Shown here one piece after another: positions 1 through 6,676 of a stretch of DNA of 6,676 nt. The stretch is taken from positions 1 through 6,676 of the forward strand of contig JBHLRO010000056.1 in the NCBI GenBank assembly GCA_048882505.1, written 5' to 3'. Position 1 is the first letter of the stretch. Each line of letters begins with the position of its first letter. The DNA is from Candidatus Thorarchaeota archaeon (GTDB taxonomy: Archaea > Asgardarchaeota > Heimdallarchaeia > Hodarchaeales > Hodarchaeaceae). A program made the translations under genes and the position numbers. The notes under the pieces are model-generated. The model had not been told where the DNA came from. It did not search any database and saw only the letters and a list, made by a program, of their open reading frames with translations.

Positions 1-189
1 TTAACTTGTTCAGTCACCTCAACAGCTAAGACAGGCGTGGAAATCGAGGCCTTGGCAGGTGTAATGAATGGCTTGCTCGCGATTTTCGACATGTTAAAAA
101 TGTATGAGAAAGACGAGAATGGCAATTATCCCCTGTCCACACGTATCGACAACATTCACATAATCTCAAAGAGTAAGGAGAATTTGTAG
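1..189 (+). CDS. moaC: Cyclic pyranopterin monophosphate synthase MoaC, C-terminal fragment (5' end outside window)
   Basis: Hand translation of frame +1: LTCSVTSTAKTGVEIEALAGVMNGLLAIFDMLKMYEKDENGNYPLSTRIDNIHIISKSKENL* (TAG 187-189). It matches the MoaC signature KTGVE(M)EAL...LxIxDMxK, and the KDExGxYP segment is typical of archaeal MoaC. Not in the supplied ORF track because it lacks a start in the window. Confidence 0.93.
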   Translation, partial: LTCSVTSTAKTGVEIEALAGVMNGLLAIFDMLKMYEKDENGNYPLSTRIDNIHIISKSKENL

Positions 190-210
190 AAAATTACGGT
201 TGGACGGGTT

Positions 211-228
211 CCATGTGTTCATACATGG
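211..228. other. Small inverted repeat between the convergent moaC and PAPS-reductase-like genes
   Basis: CCATGT-gttcat-ACATGG, a perfect 6-bp stem. No adjacent T-tract, so a terminator role is uncertain. Confidence 0.25.
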
Positions 229-277
229 GCTATAGCGGGTCAGTTTGGGTTGGATTCGACCTGAATTTCTCGTAATC

Positions 278-1105
278 TCAACATTTCGAAACAACACAAT
301 GGCCATGGGTCATGCGGTATTCCCCCAGTTGCGCATCTGTCCAGTGGCCATATTTCGCCTCGGCCTGTGCTAGTACCTGGTTGAGGGTAATCGGTTGGCC
401 TTTGTATAATTTCGGCCACACGCCATAATTCTGTTTCCCTCTATGTTTGAATTTGGCAATCTTGGCCGCTTCAATTTTCACCCAGTCGCGAAAATCGTTC
501 GGATAATTCCGCGCCAACCATACTAGCTCGATCTCGGAAATAAACGGACAAAGTTTGCAATTGGACGGTAAGGGTATTTGATACCCTACACTTCGAATGT
601 AGCTTTGACAGGCCTGTCGATCCATACCCCTGTCTAGTAGGGGAAAACGGAAATGGAGGTTCTCGGTCATCCATTTCGATCGTTGCGTGGTTTTCGCGAT
701 CCGTTTCTCCTCCCTTTTCGAAAACCCGATCAAGACCTGGATTTTTCCCCATGCCCGCGTAAACTGATAGAGGCCGCGTTTTAACCCTGTTTTGAATCCG
801 TATTTCTCCCCCATATACGCATCCAGAAATCGATAGATAGGTTGGATCTTCAGGTTGTCGGTGCACGTCTTCTTGAACCCTTTGGAGCCGCAGGTCTGTG
901 TCCGTCTGTAGAAAGCGCGCAAACTGGGCCAAAACCTGGTGTGGTATCCGAGATCGGGGGTCAGGTGGACTAGTTCAATCCCATTCTGATGGCAGAGGAT
1001 TTTCATTTCCTCTAGATGGGTGTAGGTCTCATCGTGTTCGTCCCCCGTGTCTGAGAACACTACGATCAGGTCGTGGGGGGCGTATTCGGCGCGAAATTCC
1101 GCATC
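278..1105 (-). CDS. PAPS-reductase-like / adenine nucleotide alpha-hydrolase (PP-loop superfamily) protein, 5'-truncated and lacking the PP-loop
   Basis: ORF track 278..1060 (GTG). The frame stays open upstream as *CTVIDAEFRAEYAPHDLIVVFSDTGDEHDETY, with a stop at 1118-1120. The hydrophobic strand plus SDTGxEHxETY, KTCTDNLKIxPI, VLIGF...EEKR, FPLLDxGMDRxxC and PSNCKLCPF are motifs of this family. The expected N-terminal S-x-G-x-G-x-D/Q-S loop was not found in any minus-strand frame over about 1105-1200. Confidence 0.75.
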   Translation of the reverse strand, partial: DAEFRAEYAPHDLIVVFSDTGDEHDETYTHLEEMKILCHQNGIELVHLTPDLGYHTRFWPSLRAFYRRTQTCGSKGFKKTCTDNLKIQPIYRFLDAYMGEKYGFKTGLKRGLYQFTRAWGKIQVLIGFSKREEKRIAKTTQRSKWMTENLHFRFPLLDRGMDRQACQSYIRSVGYQIPLPSNCKLCPFISEIELVWLARNYPNDFRDWVKIEAAKIAKFKHRGKQNYGVWPKLYKGQPITLNQVLAQAEAKYGHWTDAQLGEYRMTHGHCVVSKC

Positions 1106-4100
1106 TATGACCGTGCACTATCGCCCACAGAGGCCAAGGCCTTATACGATTCTTATGATGGAGGTTGGTACCAAACCCGCGAGGATCCTGCAATTGACTG
1201 GAGTATTGCGTACAATCATGATGTCATCGACTATTTTGATGGGACAGACAATCTGTTGACCCCCGAAACCCCATACAGTGCCAATTGGTGGGATAATGGT
1301 GACAATACCGCAGGAATTACTCATTCAGTGGCTCTCCCTTCAACGACAGACTGGCGGATTGATGTGGACTTTGTCTATGATGCGGATAACTTTAACTCAG
1401 GTTCTGGCATTAGTCACTCTGGACTAATGCAGATTTATTTCCTTAACGCCAATAAAGATCCTGTGATCAAGTTCACCTACATGGATAGTGATTCATCCTA
1501 CAGTGGAGGAACTTTCCCATATGGACGAAGTATGGCATTTTCCGCCTATTGGTATGACATACTGGGGACAGAGAATCTGCTTTTATATGACACTCCAATA
1601 AGCGGTGCCAGCTCAGTGGACGGTGTTTTGAGTCTCCAATATATCGATGGATTCGGAAGTTATCGTTTCCCTGACGATCCCTCTTATCCATTCCCCAATG
1701 CAGATACATGGCAATCAATTCCATCTAACGGCTTCGAACGAGGCCCTATCACCTATGTAATGTTCCATTACGAAACCGATGTTTACAGTCCCGTTGAAAT
1801 GGGAGTACGGTCGGTAACAGTAGAAAGTGAGGGTACTCCAGCGGAAACACAAATACCGTGGACAGACCCCGAGACAGTAACTGCAAATGTTGATGGTCTT
1901 GATACGGGAACATACCCCTACACCATCAGCGCCTACAACACAGGTGGATATTACAATGATGATACCGTCACCGTTCAGGTATCTAATCCAATTCCGTTAC
2001 TTACTGGCAGGGATTCACCAGTAGAACCGTTGTATTCCGAGGCAGGAGCTTCAAATATTCTTTCTATGACATTCTTTGATACAGATGCAGATTATTACAA
2101 GATCTTTGATGAGGTGAGTCAAACATGGATAGTAGATGGTACAAGTAACGGATGGACAGGCGGATCTCCCATCGATTTCGATCTTGCAGTCCTCACCGAT
2201 CCTACTCTCGCGCAACCGTACACAGAGTATAATCTCATATGGTATGCCTATGATTCAGCAGGACAGTACAATGATCATCTCGAGGACCATCCTACACGTG
2301 ATGCGTCTATCCAGGTACGTATTACCGACAATCCCCCCACGATTAATACTCCAGATCCCATAAGAATGTCCTCAGGGGCAGTAGGCGTTTATATCGAATG
2401 GCAGGACGCGGATGATGGGAATCCCTCACAATACCGAATAGGTCATTGCTTGGGATCGTCTTGTAGCTATCCAGGTACCTATACTTTTACTGACAGTTGG
2501 AGCACTGACTGGACCACATGGGCTGGAGGAGCCGTTTCAATGTCTTTGGATGGATTGTTAGGTGAAAATTACTTCGTAGCCGAACTCAAAGACCAATCAG
2601 GGCAAATCTCTCAATCTGGAGTCACCCGTGTTGATGTAATAGACTGGGACATTACTATCAACACGGACTTCACCGTTCAATATACTGACAGCTTAGCTGC
2701 TCTTCCTGCATCTATCGAGGTTGGATATATCCCTGAAGGATACGGTCAAGTCGTTGTGGATGTCTGGGTTGAGGAGGCTCCCATTAACGGTGAACCCGAT
2801 TGTGGACAATCTCCCTATGAGCTATGTTGGCAAGACATCGCATACAATTACTATGACACTGGAACCAAGAAAGCATATTATGACATACCCACAACAGTCT
2901 GGAGTACAATTGCTGGAAAAGGTCTCAGCAGTGTAGGAACGTGGACACTGCGGGCCCGTGCTTACCATCCGGATCCAGGGTATCAATACATCTACGACGG
3001 AGGTAACAGGGATTTCAACATTATCAAGGAGAATCTCGTTATAACCTTTGACGGAAGTTTCCCCTACACAATGAAGCGGAACCAAGCCGAGCTCTTTCTA
3101 GATGGATTTGATGCTACTATTCGTGATGACGATGGACAAACAGTAGATGCAGGTCTCAACTTTAATATGAAAGCCCGAGCAACACAATCTGGGGACGAAA
3201 TATTGCCCCATGCCTATCTTTGGACCAATCTGAAAAATGCTCTTTATGAAGATATAACTGGTGTTTCCTCTACAACAAGAATAATTAGCGGTAATGATTG
3301 GCAAATGAGACAGTTTTATTTCGGAACAGAGTCTAACTACTATGTCAGTTGGAGTGGTTCTGGCTTTTCAAATTATAACGACTACAACCCAGGAGGTAAT
3401 AACTACATCACTATCACAGCTCCATTATCACCGACGACAGTGCCATTTGATAATTTAAACGGATTTACAGCGTGGACCAGTAGACCAGAGGTGGGCATTG
3501 GCATAAGTTCCCAAATTTCGTGGCCTGAGGAGGGTGGTAATAGTCTAAAGTGTTGGGGTACACTTTTCGACGCAGGTTGGTGCTACGCAACTTGGGACAA
3601 TACCCCTATTATTAACTACAAACTGGGTAATCCTCCAGAGAGAGGGTTTTATTTGGGTTACTACGATGAGGAAATCTCTGTGGATATCGATAAGGGTGAG
3701 GATATATTCTTCTCCATCTACTGGGCTCCCCAAACCGTCTGGACCGAAGAGCGGATGGAGATCCACACTGGTTCGAATACATATGTTCGAATACGGGCCA
3801 GCGATGTAGAGGTCTACTCCTTGGGGTCACAGAGATTTCATTATGATCTACAAGATAGTCAGGAAATGAAGTGGTGGGGTGTAGAATTGCGGTTAACTTC
3901 GAATATTCGTCGGTATCATCCTAACTTCTCTCCAACTATGGGTTGGGCCTATGCTGATATCGCCATTGTCAAAAATGGTGTCCTAGAATGGCGGTCAGAT
4001 ATGTTTGGCGATCTTGTCGATCCTATCAATATGGGACATTGGAATCTATTTGATAACCCCACTGCACAAGGAATCGTGGAACTAAGTGCACAAGTAGGGA

Positions 4101-5395
4101 CGTTAACATATACTGATGCCTACTTCGACACTCTGACTGTTTCTGGAACCCCTGCTTTCAATGTGTGGTCTTCTTCCCCACCTGTACAAACTGATGGGGT
4201 GGTTTCAAATACATTGAAGAATGTCGTAGAAAGGAACGATAGTATCCTCTGGACAGATACATTTAATTTCAATGGACTCCAAGATATTGTTGAACAAGGA
4301 TCTATACTAATTTCTCTGAACGGGACTCAAGAACAAGCTTTTGGTACGAATTCTCTAAACTATCAGATCGAGAATGATACGTGGCAAATCTTAAACATAG
4401 GGAAGATCTCAGGAAATATTCCTGAGGGAAGTGTACGAGTTAACACCTCATATGACCTTCTAATAAACGGAAGTTGGACAAACAAAGTCTTAACTCACCC
4501 CTTGTACATAAACGATTCTGCTTCATCTTTCATATCGAGTTATGACTTAATCCAGATAATCCCTACCTCTCTCCAGAACACCGACTTTAATGCATATTCC
4601 ACAGAGGAGAGACTGACTCTATTATCTCATATTAGGTATTTGGCCGATTTGGTAAACCATCAACGTTACAGTGACATCCAGGACTACATTGGAACAAATA
4701 CTAACATGACAGAAAAAATCAGATCATATCTTATAGGTGGATCGGACAACCCCCGGCTCGCCATCATTCTCGCCAATGGTGATAATATGTTTAACACCAT
4801 CCATAAGATGGGTGCAATTAATAACGAATACCTAGATCAAATCCGGTTTTTCAAAGAGAGAAATTACCATGCATATTGGTTAACAAATGAATTTCTCACC
4901 CAAGACAATTTGGCCCTCCTCCTCAATCGAATTGAGAGTTACGAGACTCCTGATCTTAATTATTCACTCGTCATAACCTACATCGGTCATACCATAGACG
5001 TTGATGGTAAAGGTTATGCTAATGAAACACAGGGAATCGTCCTAAATTCGGGAAGGATCCTAACAGATTCACAAATAGCGAACCTATTTTCACCATTAGA
5101 GAGTAATCAGTTCTTTATAATAAATTCTTGCTTCTCTGAAGGGATCCTTCATGAATTGGAACGAGCAGACAGAATATTGTTGGGATCAAGTAAGGATGAT
5201 CTTCCTGTCAGAGTGGGGACTTTCTCACCATACAGCCCGTTCTACGATAAACTCCATACCCTTTGGGATGACCAGCTCTCTATTGAAGAAAATATTGCGA
5301 TTTTATTCCAACAATTTGCCCCCAAAACCTTGGTTTTCGTAGATGGCAACCCCATGGTGGATTGGTATCTCACCAAAAACGGGTTCACATTTTAA
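1073..5395 (+). CDS. Very large multidomain extracellular/surface protein (LamG/ConA-like and Ig-like modules) with a C-terminal caspase/legumain-fold (clan CD) cysteine peptidase domain; probably 5'-truncated
   Basis: Uninterrupted 1440-codon frame. It begins with FRIYDRALSPTEAKALY, the terminal strand-helix motif of LamG-like domains. It is rich in D/T/S/G/Y/W, carries Ig-like repeats and has C-terminal YIGH and IINSCFS motifs. There is no signal peptide, and the GTG at 1073 lies inside the antisense of the neighbouring gene, so it is probably not the true start. Confidence 0.85.
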   Translation: MGGVFGAKFRIYDRALSPTEAKALYDSYDGGWYQTREDPAIDWSIAYNHDVIDYFDGTDNLLTPETPYSANWWDNGDNTAGITHSVALPSTTDWRIDVDFVYDADNFNSGSGISHSGLMQIYFLNANKDPVIKFTYMDSDSSYSGGTFPYGRSMAFSAYWYDILGTENLLLYDTPISGASSVDGVLSLQYIDGFGSYRFPDDPSYPFPNADTWQSIPSNGFERGPITYVMFHYETDVYSPVEMGVRSVTVESEGTPAETQIPWTDPETVTANVDGLDTGTYPYTISAYNTGGYYNDDTVTVQVSNPIPLLTGRDSPVEPLYSEAGASNILSMTFFDTDADYYKIFDEVSQTWIVDGTSNGWTGGSPIDFDLAVLTDPTLAQPYTEYNLIWYAYDSAGQYNDHLEDHPTRDASIQVRITDNPPTINTPDPIRMSSGAVGVYIEWQDADDGNPSQYRIGHCLGSSCSYPGTYTFTDSWSTDWTTWAGGAVSMSLDGLLGENYFVAELKDQSGQISQSGVTRVDVIDWDITINTDFTVQYTDSLAALPASIEVGYIPEGYGQVVVDVWVEEAPINGEPDCGQSPYELCWQDIAYNYYDTGTKKAYYDIPTTVWSTIAGKGLSSVGTWTLRARAYHPDPGYQYIYDGGNRDFNIIKENLVITFDGSFPYTMKRNQAELFLDGFDATIRDDDGQTVDAGLNFNMKARATQSGDEILPHAYLWTNLKNALYEDITGVSSTTRIISGNDWQMRQFYFGTESNYYVSWSGSGFSNYNDYNPGGNNYITITAPLSPTTVPFDNLNGFTAWTSRPEVGIGISSQISWPEEGGNSLKCWGTLFDAGWCYATWDNTPIINYKLGNPPERGFYLGYYDEEISVDIDKGEDIFFSIYWAPQTVWTEERMEIHTGSNTYVRIRASDVEVYSLGSQRFHYDLQDSQEMKWWGVELRLTSNIRRYHPNFSPTMGWAYADIAIVKNGVLEWRSDMFGDLVDPINMGHWNLFDNPTAQGIVELSAQVGTLTYTDAYFDTLTVSGTPAFNVWSSSPPVQTDGVVSNTLKNVVERNDSILWTDTFNFNGLQDIVEQGSILISLNGTQEQAFGTNSLNYQIENDTWQILNIGKISGNIPEGSVRVNTSYDLLINGSWTNKVLTHPLYINDSASSFISSYDLIQIIPTSLQNTDFNAYSTEERLTLLSHIRYLADLVNHQRYSDIQDYIGTNTNMTEKIRSYLIGGSDNPRLAIILANGDNMFNTIHKMGAINNEYLDQIRFFKERNYHAYWLTNEFLTQDNLALLLNRIESYETPDLNYSLVITYIGHTIDVDGKGYANETQGIVLNSGRILTDSQIANLFSPLESNQFFIINSCFSEGILHELERADRILLGSSKDDLPVRVGTFSPYSPFYDKLHTLWDDQLSIEENIAILFQQFAPKTLVFVDGNPMVDWYLTKNGFTF
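1850..2644 (+). repeat. About 2.5 degenerate Ig-like protein repeats within the large ORF
   Basis: Recurring pattern P..I..P.......G......W.D.D.NP..Y.I...W......DGL..G.Y......D..G......V.V. Units: about 1850-1987 (second half only: WTDPETVTANVDGLDTGTYPYTISAYNTGGYYNDDTVTVQV), 1988-2332, and 2333-2644 (PPTINTPD...EWQDADDGNPSQYRI...WAGGAVSMSLDGL.GENYFVAELKDQSG...VTRVDV). Visible at the protein level only. Confidence 0.6.
4751..5395 (+). other. Clan CD (caspase-hemoglobinase fold; C13/C14/C25-like) peptidase domain
   Basis: N-terminal strand RLAIILANG; His motif VITYIGH (His codon 4988-4990, residue 1306); Cys motif FFIINSCFSEG (Cys codon 5129-5131, residue 1353). The 47-residue spacing and the following ILLGSS strand fit the clan CD fold. 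Confidence 0.72.
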
Positions 5396-6675
5396 TTCCG
5401 TCGTTTTCTCCATACAGAAATGAGGAGCATCCCAAATAGTAAATTGACTGATATTAGGAAGCCAGAACTCGGATTTTCCAAGCGTAACTCATTCTTCTTT
5501 CTATTCAAGCCAATAGAAAAGATTCTGTCGTTGGTATCAAAAGCGGAAATACCTGCCGAGTCCGTAGCGACGATTTTAATATGGTACCATCCATTGGGAA
5601 CTAAATTTGAATCCCACATGAAATTTGATGCCACCAATTTTCCCGTCCCTACCGAGTTCCATTGAATACACTTTTCTGAGTCGTTGATTGATTGATTACA
5701 GATTCCATAAAACACATTGTAAGAGATAGAATGATCATACGGATAATCTTGTGAGGGTTCCCACGTTACGTTCACTAGTCCTGATAATGATTCAAAACCG
5801 ATTGGAAAGAGAAGACGAGGGGGAGTAATAAAGTGTAAATTACCCGCGGTGAGATGCTGCTTTGGAGCGGTCAAGGGGGAGGAGTCTTCGTTGTATACGT
5901 TTCCCCCGATTTTAATGGGGAAATCCACGACTTGATCGTTATCAAGATCTACCACAGTTTCTCTTCCCCAGTAATTTGATTCAATAGTATTCTTGGTACC
6001 AAGCTCATGATATTCATGTATTTGAGATATATTGTCTCGGACATCCTGAGCGGTGAGATCAGCAATGTCAATCCATTCATCATAAAAAACATCCAATCGA
6101 TTTCCTATTACATCATTCCACTGGATTGCAACATTAAGTGAGTCCCGAAGCTTAATTGCCCATAATTCATTATTGTACAGAGTATTATTCCTAATATGCA
6201 ACACGCTGGAGTTCTGAACCTCTATACCGAATGAATTTTCGTGAATAACGTTGTGAATGATAGATAGGTTCGGATAGTCGTAGACACGAACCCCTGTGGA
6301 TTTTCCTGAAACAAAGTTATCTCGGACAAGTACGTTTGAACCACCGTAATGTGTCCTTTTTCCATCCCAATATTTCCCGAGAATTTCCATCCCATGTCCA
6401 CGATAGTTATCCTCGGTCTGACTTAAGTTGTTCGAGGCAATCGTCACATTATTAGCCATTAAAGAATAAATGCCATGATTGTTATTCGCGAAATTATTCA
6501 GCATCATAATTAGATTATCTGAGTTACGTATGTGGATCGCTTTGCTATTATTATGGAAATAATTCCCTGTAATCTTAATATCATTTGATTGTACGATATT
6601 TAGGGCTCCCTCGTCTAAATATGATGAAAATAATTCGTTATTACTTATCGTGATGTTATTTGCATTGTTTAAATT
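5392..6675 (-). CDS. NosD-like right-handed parallel beta-helix protein with a C-terminal beta-sandwich and membrane anchor (5' end outside window)
   Basis: The frame is open beyond the track start at 6507 to the window edge (NLNNANNITISNNELFSSYLDEGALNIVQSNDIKITGNYFHNNSKAIHIRNSDNLIMMLNN...). It has repeated IxxNxxxxNxxGI units and the NYW...DLDNDQVVDFP.KIGG...DSSPL cap common in archaeal NosD-like proteins. These are followed by an Ig/Fn3-like domain (PPRLLFP..ESLSG.VNVTW...WDS..VPNG.Y.IKIVATDS.G) and a hydrophobic tail ending RKRRN. No nos-cluster context, so it is not called nosD. Confidence 0.85.
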   Translation of the reverse strand, partial: NLNNANNITISNNELFSSYLDEGALNIVQSNDIKITGNYFHNNSKAIHIRNSDNLIMMLNNFANNNHGIYSLMANNVTIASNNLSQTEDNYRGHGMEILGKYWDGKRTHYGGSNVLVRDNFVSGKSTGVRVYDYPNLSIIHNVIHENSFGIEVQNSSVLHIRNNTLYNNELWAIKLRDSLNVAIQWNDVIGNRLDVFYDEWIDIADLTAQDVRDNISQIHEYHELGTKNTIESNYWGRETVVDLDNDQVVDFPIKIGGNVYNEDSSPLTAPKQHLTAGNLHFITPPRLLFPIGFESLSGLVNVTWEPSQDYPYDHSISYNVFYGICNQSINDSEKCIQWNSVGTGKLVASNFMWDSNLVPNGWYHIKIVATDSAGISAFDTNDRIFSIGLNRKKNELRLENPSSGFLISVNLLFGMLLISVWRKRRN

Positions 6676-6676
6676 G

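Follow-up and report, generated by a model that had tools for sequence, protein, structure and literature searches.

The junction J1, at which two genes run into each other head to head, is probably a fixed scar of illegitimate recombination in DNA derived from a mobile element, with the open reading frames (ORFs) on both sides being remnants. J1 is a real and apparently fixed DNA join, and it lies inside an insert of ~9 kb that begins near the left end of the window, by which we mean the whole 6,676-nt stretch analyzed here (Table 1). Two parts make up this mosaic insert: the last 272 codons of a virus-type PAPS-reductase-like (PAPS-like) gene, and an incomplete paralogous copy of the 3' part of a giant surface-protein locus, namely the giant-gene tail, a NosD-like gene and ORF333. 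We propose that these two parts would have been joined by illegitimate recombination over a microhomology of 2-3 nt, and that the PAPS-like gene would have been broken without loss of a base, its first 46 codons and upstream region being kept in a second insert, on contig C15.

Table 1. Coordinates of the features in the window
Feature	Position	Strand	Basis or remark
moaC 3' end	1..189	+	Pfam MoaC E=2e-12; continues from C29 (77-nt exact overlap)
Crossover core, imperfect direct repeat AAAATGTATGAGAAAGAC	97..114		Left boundary of ~9-kb insert
88-nt spacer, moaC stop to PAPS-like stop	190..277		Absent from the genome's other PAPS-like fragments
Virus-type PAPS-reductase-like gene, 3' part (codons 46-317 + stop)	278..1096	-	phrog_424, homolog alignment, C15 half
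Junction J1	1094-1100		PAPS-derived DNA up to 1096, giant-gene homology from 1095
Giant LamG/Ig-type surface-protein gene, 3' fragment (1,432 codons + stop)	1097..5395	+	C14 paralog
NosD/beta-helix surface protein, C-terminal 427 residues, membrane anchor	5392..6676	-	Pfam Beta_helix, NosD

Results

Two truncated genes meet at J1

In the minus frame, a stop at 1118-1120 is followed by 279 open codons as far as 278, and in the plus frame a stop at 1052-1054 is followed by 1,446 open codons as far as 5395, in agreement with the stop-free runs of about 275 and 1430 codons given in a preliminary description of this DNA. A start codon first becomes available at GTG 1060 on the minus strand and at GTG 1073 on the plus strand; the ORFs therefore overlap without intergenic space and, as had been noted, there is no room for either promoter. 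That both genes are 5'-truncated and abruptly joined is confirmed by homologs for the PAPS-like gene and by a paralog on contig C14 for the giant gene. The C14 homology to the plus ORF starts at window 1095, the base after 1096 in the original PAPS gene is C according to the 5' half on C15, and related genes of another metagenome part from the window sequence at 1096 or 1100. The microhomology amounts to AA(A), 2-3 nt and 6 at most, which replaces the 9 nt at 1097-1105 proposed earlier; the 'DAE' that had seemed plausible for the minus gene is merely the antisense of the giant-gene FRI codons, and the authentic residues are N-E-K.

The minus-strand ORF matches PHROG 424 (phrog_424; E=1.2e-22, residues 11-250), and Pfam PF01507 scores 16.4 bits on it, under the cut-off of 22.5. 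We found 325 homologs, several of which carry the source name PAPS reductase; among the matches listed, 120 homologs cover 97-99% of the window ORF, and these are mostly 290-320 aa long. Fifteen aligned homologs have ~20-25 extra N-terminal residues with a near-invariant L-T-V-L-S-F-G-x-G-Q-D-S PP-loop (S-x-G-x-D-S type; here S-F-G-x-G-Q-D-S), which is present in the 13 of the 15 that keep the N-terminus. The PP-loop N-terminus of these homologs supports the truncation of the PAPS-like gene. Family homology stops at 1096, and the sole start is the internal GTG 1060. Frame and homolog alignment thus bear out the earlier description of a minus-strand stop just beyond the homology and a missing PP-loop. 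Relatives in run X3, 90-95% identical over 701-1100, continue past 1096 or 1100, and their continuation reads ILLKLIHDTK / LKLIHVEE, the expected N-terminal extension. An unbroken PAPS gene with 90-95% identity occurs in the hydrothermal-vent runs X3-X5. The window ORF is without the first 45 codons, and because its start codon and PP-loop are missing it is probably a pseudogene.

The distribution of this gene is that of a mobile one. The protein has matches on 17 IMG/VR contigs at 36-50% identity, and the closest homolog is located within a run of small same-strand ORFs. The gene is missing from 39 of the 40 relatives searched, and the genome studied here holds six or more PAPS copies. A scan of genome contigs found no close relatives of the gene, and a degenerate 29-nt pattern over the intact PAPS gene gave, against JGI metagenome contigs, one chance match to an unrelated eukaryote-like contig.

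The paralog of the plus ORF is a 14,729-aa ORF on C14, of which it matches only the last tenth (~1,433 residues). Homology begins at residue 13,282 of that paralog, inside '...GTIDEFRIYDLALSPTEAKALY', the end of a complete LamG domain, so that the C14 gene has 13,281 codons ahead of the point equivalent to J1. Amino acid identity is 72-91% (mean 84%) across the first 400 residues and 25-64% beyond. The plus ORF has neither start context nor signal peptide and retains only the last strand of the LamG domain: instead of the complete jelly-roll of ~150 residues (LamG / Laminin_G_3, PF13385), the last ~14 profile positions (FRIYDRALSPTEAKAL) are left. The C14 paralog therefore upholds the earlier reading that this gene becomes recognizable only at the last LamG element. 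No Pfam or NCBIfam match was found on the plus ORF, and all 21 LamG matches of the genome are complete and located elsewhere. Searching the 94.5%-complete assembly by tblastn with the 14,729-aa paralog and with the LamG profile, we did not find the 5' half of the giant gene or a C-terminally cut LamG; none of the N-terminal giant paralogs on C44, C38 and C66 is cut at the matching point.

The N-terminus of the NosD-like protein, with its signal peptide, is encoded at C35:2-469, and C35 therefore follows the window. The gene order giant, NosD-like, ORF333 is the same as on C14, and the plus-strand part shows synteny and identity to C14:11197->2496. A retro-type origin (twin priming) of head-to-head 5'-truncated copies was considered and rejected: the plus part extends over three genes, which do not all point the same way, and is syntenic with C14 between the genes as well.

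J1 in an independent assembly

In the Logan contigs of run X1, which are assembled contigs rather than raw reads and come from what is probably the source sample, J1 is crossed at full depth. This independent k=31 assembly of the run contains a 189-nt contig over 1022-1210 with 0 differences and a depth of 16.4, between flanks with depths of 17.2 (11.2 + 6.0, two variants) and 18.2. The preliminary description had advised looking here for a coverage step or alternative junctions; in the X1 contigs the depth is level across J1, and no alternative junction or loose end was seen. It had also raised the possibility of a chimeric contig, and an assembly or library artefact might be suspected given that the window, which belongs to a metagenome bin, is a contig of just 6.7 kb, that its left end is joined to C29 solely via a 77-nt graph overlap, and that giant genes are repetitive. 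However, the same J1 appears at flank depth in an independently made k=31 assembly, 2-3 nt of shared sequence are insufficient for a de Bruijn join, and the gene order right of J1 agrees with the paralogous C14 locus, which together make an artefact very unlikely. Of the earlier judgment that the event was 'recent or artefactual', the first half stands, in that the event is recent enough for the frames to be still open, and the second is contradicted by the X1 assembly. Of the raw reads of run X6, a sample of about 1% contained none matching the window.

The C29-like neighbor contig has twice the depth (34.9), so that the population is locally heterogeneous. X1 contains 803-1051 in two variants that differ at 19 sites, 14 of them third codon positions; given this bias, the truncated PAPS ORF may still be under selection, or else a close intact copy may be.

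A programmed reversible inversion switch controlling both genes, one form of the inversion suggested previously, would account for the head-to-head topology, and a second PAPS/surface-gene head-to-head junction occurs at C2:~101591. Since there is no inverted repeat at or around J1 (1000-1200) and no alternative junction in X1, however, such a switch is without support. Only one form was seen in X1, no recombinase was recognized nearby, the reciprocal junction described below is without the giant-gene 5' half, and the junctions on C2 and C11 are not flipping but old and diverged. We regard a switch as extremely improbable.

A strain-specific insert in the 3' end of moaC

Comparison with the closest relative, G016 (EF-2 97% identical at the amino acid level), defines the surroundings of J1. 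In G016, moaC and moaB are contiguous, moaC being followed directly by the genes found from C35:2305 onward, and G016 has nothing like window 100-6676 save a PAPS pseudo-fragment. Because moaC-moaB are contiguous there, window ~115-6676, a small assembly gap and C35:1-2304 together form a strain-specific insert of ~9 kb in the moaC 3' end.

A three-way alignment of the window, G016 and C35 distinguishes the host and replacement tails of moaC. Bases 1-114 are host-like, whereas 115-189 are a diverged replacement tail that is ~76% identical to the displaced tail at C35:2305-2400. The insert thus replaces the moaC tail, and the original is displaced past an 18-nt imperfect direct repeat, whose core recurs with 17/18 identity in the displaced tail from C35:~2317; G016 matches the window up to the core and C35 beyond it. 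The insert, which G016 lacks, is thus flanked by direct repeats, as integrative elements are. In the genome's other PAPS-like fragments, homology to the window starts at 277-288.

Among the ORFs of the two inserts, Pfam recognized no integrase or recombinase. ORF333 and ORF359, the latter on C15, had no Pfam match, an Atlas search of ORF333 gave nothing, and Pfam and Atlas searches of protein X for a recombinase gave nothing usable. Protein X and ORF359 were not found beside PAPS genes in the viral loci examined. No close match to the donor of the diverged moaC tail or of the roadblock 5' copy in the C15 insert was found among 83 class genomes and 22 genus genomes. The mobile-element option of the preliminary description is partly retained: a virus-type gene lies in an insert resembling an integrated element, but J1 is not an excision scar.

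The missing 5' half of the PAPS-like gene

The preliminary description had proposed a search for the missing N-termini, and one of the two is present. C15:80176-80313 encodes M...GLTLLSFGAGQDSTAILFKLIQNEKF and then diverges; this PAPS 5' half (the first 46 codons) carries the PP-loop that the window ORF lacks and ends at the same Phe codon as the window break. Placed in front of window 1093-278, it yields a protein of 317 aa that aligns colinearly with the family and shows no indel where the halves meet. The match between the halves is one of adjoining ends, not of overlapping sequence. On C15, the 5' half is joined to the complete upstream region of an unrelated 359-aa ORF (ORF359). It lies in a second insert of 1.9 kb (C15:78666-80585) at the 5' end of a roadblock-type gene. 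The insert duplicates, in diverged form, the promoter of that gene and its first 8 codons; G016 C75 runs contiguous across this site.

Because the halves are exactly complementary, we infer that both would derive from one gene and that a single break would have produced both J1 and the C15 junction. If instead the C15 5' fragment came from another PAPS copy, the break-point match would be a coincidence, which we estimate at ~1-4%. The other missing N-terminus, the giant-gene 5' part, was not found, so that a fully reciprocal event cannot be shown.

These observations bear on two of the rearrangements suggested earlier. Simple deletion of a divergent promoter region together with both 5' ends would leave a head-to-head pair of 5'-truncated genes, and a short microhomology agrees with illegitimate recombination. 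Against this, the PAPS 5' end survives on C15 and ends at the same codon, up to 13,281 codons would be missing according to the C14 paralog, and the entire region is inserted when compared with the closest relative, which shows no ancestral divergent pair here. We therefore consider a deletion improbable.

Alternatively, J1 could mark one end of a large inversion in the chromosome, perhaps the return half of a there-and-back pair. The breaks would have hit the PAPS-like gene and a LamG surface gene, the latter in its 5' region, with loss of its promoter, signal peptide and LamG part. The PAPS halves are exactly complementary and at two distant loci; if the loci were in opposite orientation, undoing the break would topologically require one inversion. 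On C15 the partner is the upstream region of ORF359 in complete form, which would fit a divergently transcribed surface gene having once lain beyond it. However, both loci are locally colinear with G016 on each side, so that an earlier inversion would also be needed, and the opposite orientation is an assumption, the contigs being separate. Furthermore, the giant 5' part is missing and not joined to the PAPS 5' half. The other inversion end proposed earlier is thus realized in part: there is a reciprocal junction with the PAPS 5' half, which has a partner other than the one predicted. An inversion seems to us possible, if rather unlikely; it is a specific version of the preferred reading, a recombination scar in mobile-element-derived DNA, and not another kind of object.

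Discussion

The PAPS remnant has neither start nor PP-loop and the giant tail has neither promoter, start nor signal peptide, suggesting that both are non-functional relics in which stops have not yet accumulated. We infer that J1 does nothing by design. The order of events could have involved a large inversion, a reciprocal exchange, or a circular element opened within the PAPS gene. Excision of a c-d-e circle followed by re-integration, which we set aside, fits the junction sequences but requires the break to hit an older mosaic junction exactly.

We speculate, with considerable doubt, that the two inserts and the other PAPS remnants mark an undescribed family of Asgard integrative elements without a recognizable integrase. 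Such elements would enter host gene ends with a look-alike gene end and repeatedly capture 3' portions of surface genes beside a PAPS-like gene, as here and at the C2 junction, and J1 would be a capture junction formed in the element instead of a scar of chance.

The present case is a caution that a junction resembling a candidate switch can be a rearrangement scar. Annotation pipelines will call both relic frames genes, one a 260-aa "PAPS reductase" and the other a 1,440-aa protein. The Hodarchaeales-type genome analyzed here contains strain-specific inserts in which remains of viral genes are combined with incomplete copies of giant surface-protein loci, and these bear on the duplication and shuffling of giant surface-protein genes. 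With closed genomes, the two sharply bounded insertion sites and the gene-end look-alike at each could also help to delimit the mobile elements of Asgard archaea.

PAPS reductases have been reported in Asgard viruses and mobile genetic elements (MGEs), including verdandivirus VerdaV1 (bioRxiv 10.1101/2021.07.29.453957). The window ORF belongs to the same sequence family as the PAPS-reductase-like proteins of viruses and MGEs (PF01507 superfamily; PHROG 424), with the same patchy, mobile distribution and the common conserved motifs D-T-G-x-E, K-T-C-T-D-x-L-K, P-S-N-C-x-x-C-P and H-G-H-C-V. Unlike the members of this ~300-aa subfamily, the window copy, having lost its N-terminal part, cannot work. 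Similarly, the plus ORF is paralogous to the C-terminal tenth of one of the giant LamG/Ig-repeat surface proteins of Heimdall-group Asgard archaea, encoded in the same genome, but unlike those proteins it is a mere tail.

Integrated elements may enter the 3' ends of genes (tRNA or protein), carry a replacement end and be bounded by attL/attR direct repeats. Like integrase-type elements, the window insert starts inside moaC, brings a diverged tail and leaves the original tail after an 18-nt repeat, and the C15 insert does likewise at a roadblock-type gene, for its promoter and first 8 codons. Unlike these elements, the inserts have no recognized integrase and are mosaics of gene fragments. An insert with a replacement end would also be expected from homology-facilitated illegitimate recombination with foreign DNA. 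The broken PAPS gene itself recalls the partition of SSV-type integrases and other genes split by inserted elements, in which there is likewise one cut point, no bases are lost and both parts are kept. In contrast to SSV-type partition, the gene split here is not an integrase, and its halves lie in two inserts, each beside unrelated DNA, rather than flanking one element.

Results

Both genes that meet head to head at the junction lack their 5' ends. Among 325 homologs of the minus-strand ORF, the best 120 cover 97-99% of it; the family consists of ~290-320-aa proteins named PAPS reductase by their sources. PHROG 424 (phage PAPS reductase) matches the ORF (E=1e-22), and its Pfam PF01507 score is below the cut-off. 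Alignment with 15 homologs shows that the family has 20-25 extra N-terminal residues with a near-invariant LTVLSFGxGQDS PP-loop; in the window this part is replaced by unrelated sequence containing a stop. The plus-strand ORF had no family match in profile searches. It has a paralog on contig C14, with nucleotide homology beginning at window position 1095, and it matches residues 13,282-14,729 of that 14,729-aa ORF; the matching point lies inside '...GTIDEFRIYDLALSPTEAKALY', where a complete LamG domain ends. Given the family alignment and the match to the C14 tail, both truncations are real, as the preliminary description proposed. On the minus strand 279 codons are open after a stop at 1118-1120, and on the plus strand 1,446 after a stop at 1052-1054; the earliest start codons available, GTG 1060 for the minus frame and GTG 1073 for the plus frame, overlap mutually. 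Both frames have stayed open owing to the youth of the break, since relatives that keep the PAPS-like gene intact remain 90-95% identical. Having lost its start codon and PP-loop, the PP-loop enzyme very probably does not work; production or export of the surface-protein tail, which has no promoter, start context or signal peptide, is unlikely.

Identity between the plus-strand ORF and its C14 paralog is uneven: 87% at the nucleotide level in the first 200 nt and 79% across 1.5 kb. At the amino acid level it is 72-91% (mean 84%) in the first 400 residues, drops to 64% in the following 100 and is 25-47% from there on. This mosaic pattern suggests that giant-gene paralogs have undergone recombination or gene conversion. 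N-terminal paralogs of the C14 ORF occur on C44, C38 and C66 (38-44% amino acid identity).

The window is the complete 6,676-bp contig C56 of a metagenome-derived bin (83 contigs, 4.32 Mb, 94.5% complete), whose gene content elsewhere (MCM, roadblock and small-GTPase genes) suggests a Hodarchaeales-type Asgard archaeon. The probable source sample, sequencing run X1, contains 92% of the words sampled. A 189-nt Logan contig from X1 spans 1022-1210 with no differences at depth 16.4, between flanking contigs at 17.2 and 18.2; this read support comes from Logan contigs, the one raw-read run having given no reads on the window. A de Bruijn join with 2-3 shared bases is impossible unless reads cross it, and the equal depth of junction and flanks argues against rare chimeric reads. 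The head-to-head join is therefore correct as observed and is real DNA; the junction is bridged evenly, no loose ends or joints were reported for X1, and the suggestion of a chimeric contig is ruled against. The left flank comprises two variants of window 803-1051 (depths 11.2 and 6.0) that merge into the junction-crossing contig. Fourteen of their 19 differences fall at third codon positions, as do 22 of 29 differences between the window and its relatives in run X3, which shows selection on the PAPS-like gene during that divergence and is silent on the date of the cut. Near window 412-431 depth falls from 26.6 to 14.2. The C29-like neighbour in X1 has a depth of 34.9, about twice the window's 13-18; the population at this locus is therefore heterogeneous.

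A tblastn search with family N-termini gave one match, on contig C15. This fragment encodes M-A-I-K...GLTLLSFGAGQDSTAILFKLIQNEKF, then diverges and stops after 11 codons; it ends at the same Phe codon where the window part starts. Fused, the halves form a 317-residue sequence whose alignment to the family has no indel at the joint. With six 3' fragments in the genome, a coincidental match within a few bases is estimated at ~1-4%. The missing PAPS N-terminus was thus located, complementary to the window part. The two 5' ends are not adjacent at one other locus, the arrangement that would have supported an inversion: C15 has the PAPS half only, and the 5' part of the giant gene itself could not be located in the 94.5%-complete assembly; it was either lost or outside the copied segment from the outset.

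In the C15 half, the base after the Phe codon (plus-strand 1094-1096 of the window) is C, and window 1097 is T. Genes in X3, a run from another metagenome, that are 90-95% identical over window 701-1100 depart from it at 1096 or 1100, and their continuations, reverse-complemented, read ILLKLIHDTK and LKLIHVEE, the expected family N-terminus. Combined with C14 homology from 1095, this sets the overlap at 2-3 nt, and at most 6. A short overlap therefore exists, smaller than the microhomology proposed at 1097-1105; the 'DAE' read there as PAPS sequence results from reading the giant gene's F-R-I codons on the opposite strand.

Coordinates of the genes, fragments and inserts discussed here
Feature	Position	Strand	Details
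PAPS-like 3' part	window 278-1096	-	without PP-loop
Giant-gene tail	window 1097-5395	+	3' fragment
PAPS-like 5' half	C15:80176-80313	-	
C14 giant ORF	C14:6854-51040	-	uninterrupted 14,729 codons, 44 kb, at least two LamG domains
Insert at moaC	window ~115-6676 + C35:1-2304		~9 kb
Second insert	C15:78666-80585		1.9 kb, at 5' end of roadblock-type gene; closest relative contiguous across
ORF333	C35:1288-2286; C14:2508-3506		conserved 333 aa, 81% amino acid identity between loci
PAPS-like fragment	C2:101142-101627		5'-truncated
PAPS-like fragment	C2:216387-216602		5'-truncated
PAPS-like fragment	C11:118679-118975		5'-truncated
PAPS-like fragment	C64:303-575		5'-truncated
PAPS-like fragment of G016	G016 C135:2288-2773		5'-truncated, ends at gene's stop codon, two in-frame stops
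Second head-to-head junction	C2:~101591-101600; C11:~118876-118890		C11 is a diverged copy
Protein pair	C2:100318-101148; C11:117769-118611		277/281 aa, 67% identical, directly downstream of PAPS-like fragments

Each half lies within inserted DNA. Window bases 1-77 repeat the end of C29 exactly, as a k-mer graph overlap. A beta-helix protein has its signal-peptide end encoded at C35:2-469 and its C-terminal part at window 5392-6675. This region and C14:11197->2496 share the gene order giant tail, NosD-like gene, non-coding stretch, ORF333, with 85-91% nucleotide identity at the ORF333 end. The shared protein, this gene order and the C29 overlap make C29, the window and C35 consecutive. In G016, the closest relative in the reference set (97% amino acid identity in EF-2, 95% in MoeA), moaC directly precedes genes equivalent to C35:2305 onward; G016 tracks the window through an 18-nt core (window 97-114) and C35 thereafter. 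Past the core, the window's moaC tail is only ~76% identical to the host tail, and the original tail (MVKMYEKDLEGNYPLSTRIDNVCVLSKKKEDL) now lies at C35:2305-2400, displaced to a position immediately before moaB. The sequence between is thus a ~9-kb insert, with no counterpart in G016 except a PAPS pseudo-fragment elsewhere in its genome. ORF333, which closes each copy of the giant-gene module on C14 as here, had no Pfam family and no useful Atlas neighbour; its C-terminus may be winged-helix-like.

The C15 insert contains the first 46 codons of the PAPS-like gene and ORF359 with its full upstream region, a paralog of C23:41665-42958 (69% identical). With the insert came a copy, ~70-78% identical, of the roadblock promoter and first 8 codons; this copy is fused to the host gene, and the originals are displaced to the opposite side of the insert. 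An exact 77-nt reverse-complement overlap between C64:1-77 and C15:1-77 places C64 next to C15's left end in the assembly graph; besides a PAPS fragment, C64 encodes a 703-aa protein that weakly matches a Cdc6 winged helix.

Discussion

The PAPS-like family is mobile. It was absent from 39 of 40 relatives searched and present in 17 IMG/VR viral contigs, and the closest homolog sits among small same-strand ORFs. PAPS reductases have been reported from Asgard viruses and MGEs (bioRxiv 10.1101/2021.07.29.453957). Four more 5'-truncated fragments in the genome start at various codons of the gene, and each runs to its stop codon. The PAPS-like fragment at the second head-to-head junction starts near codon 150 (C2) or 205 (C11) and meets a last Ig-like domain and membrane anchor, a partial 3' copy of a surface-protein gene whose full-size parent-type relative on C79 is 95% identical. 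The two copies have a common surface-side break point and differ by 186 nt on the PAPS side. The 277/281-aa pair, which had no Pfam match, gave no match in 21 further genomes of the genus and is thus probably element-borne.

We propose that the PAPS-like gene was cut once with nothing lost, leaving the Phe codon at both junctions, and that each cut end was then joined to unrelated DNA. Such a history would exclude a simple deletion, and survival of the PAPS 5' half on C15 counts against the idea that a divergent promoter and both 5' ends were deleted. Undoing the break would give two circles or, if the two loci are in opposite orientation, a single large inversion. Both loci are locally colinear with G016, so the inversion reading would also require an earlier one. 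A reversible switch has no basis: no inverted repeats flank the junction, and neither Pfam searches of the ORFs nor an Atlas search of ORF333 revealed a recombinase in the inserts. The pattern is the one left when illegitimate recombination produces a reciprocal or insertional break-and-join. This analysis located the reciprocal half, defined two insert sites with gene-end look-alikes and noted a second similar junction. The junction is an ordinary object: a rearrangement scar in strain-specific DNA derived from mobile elements.
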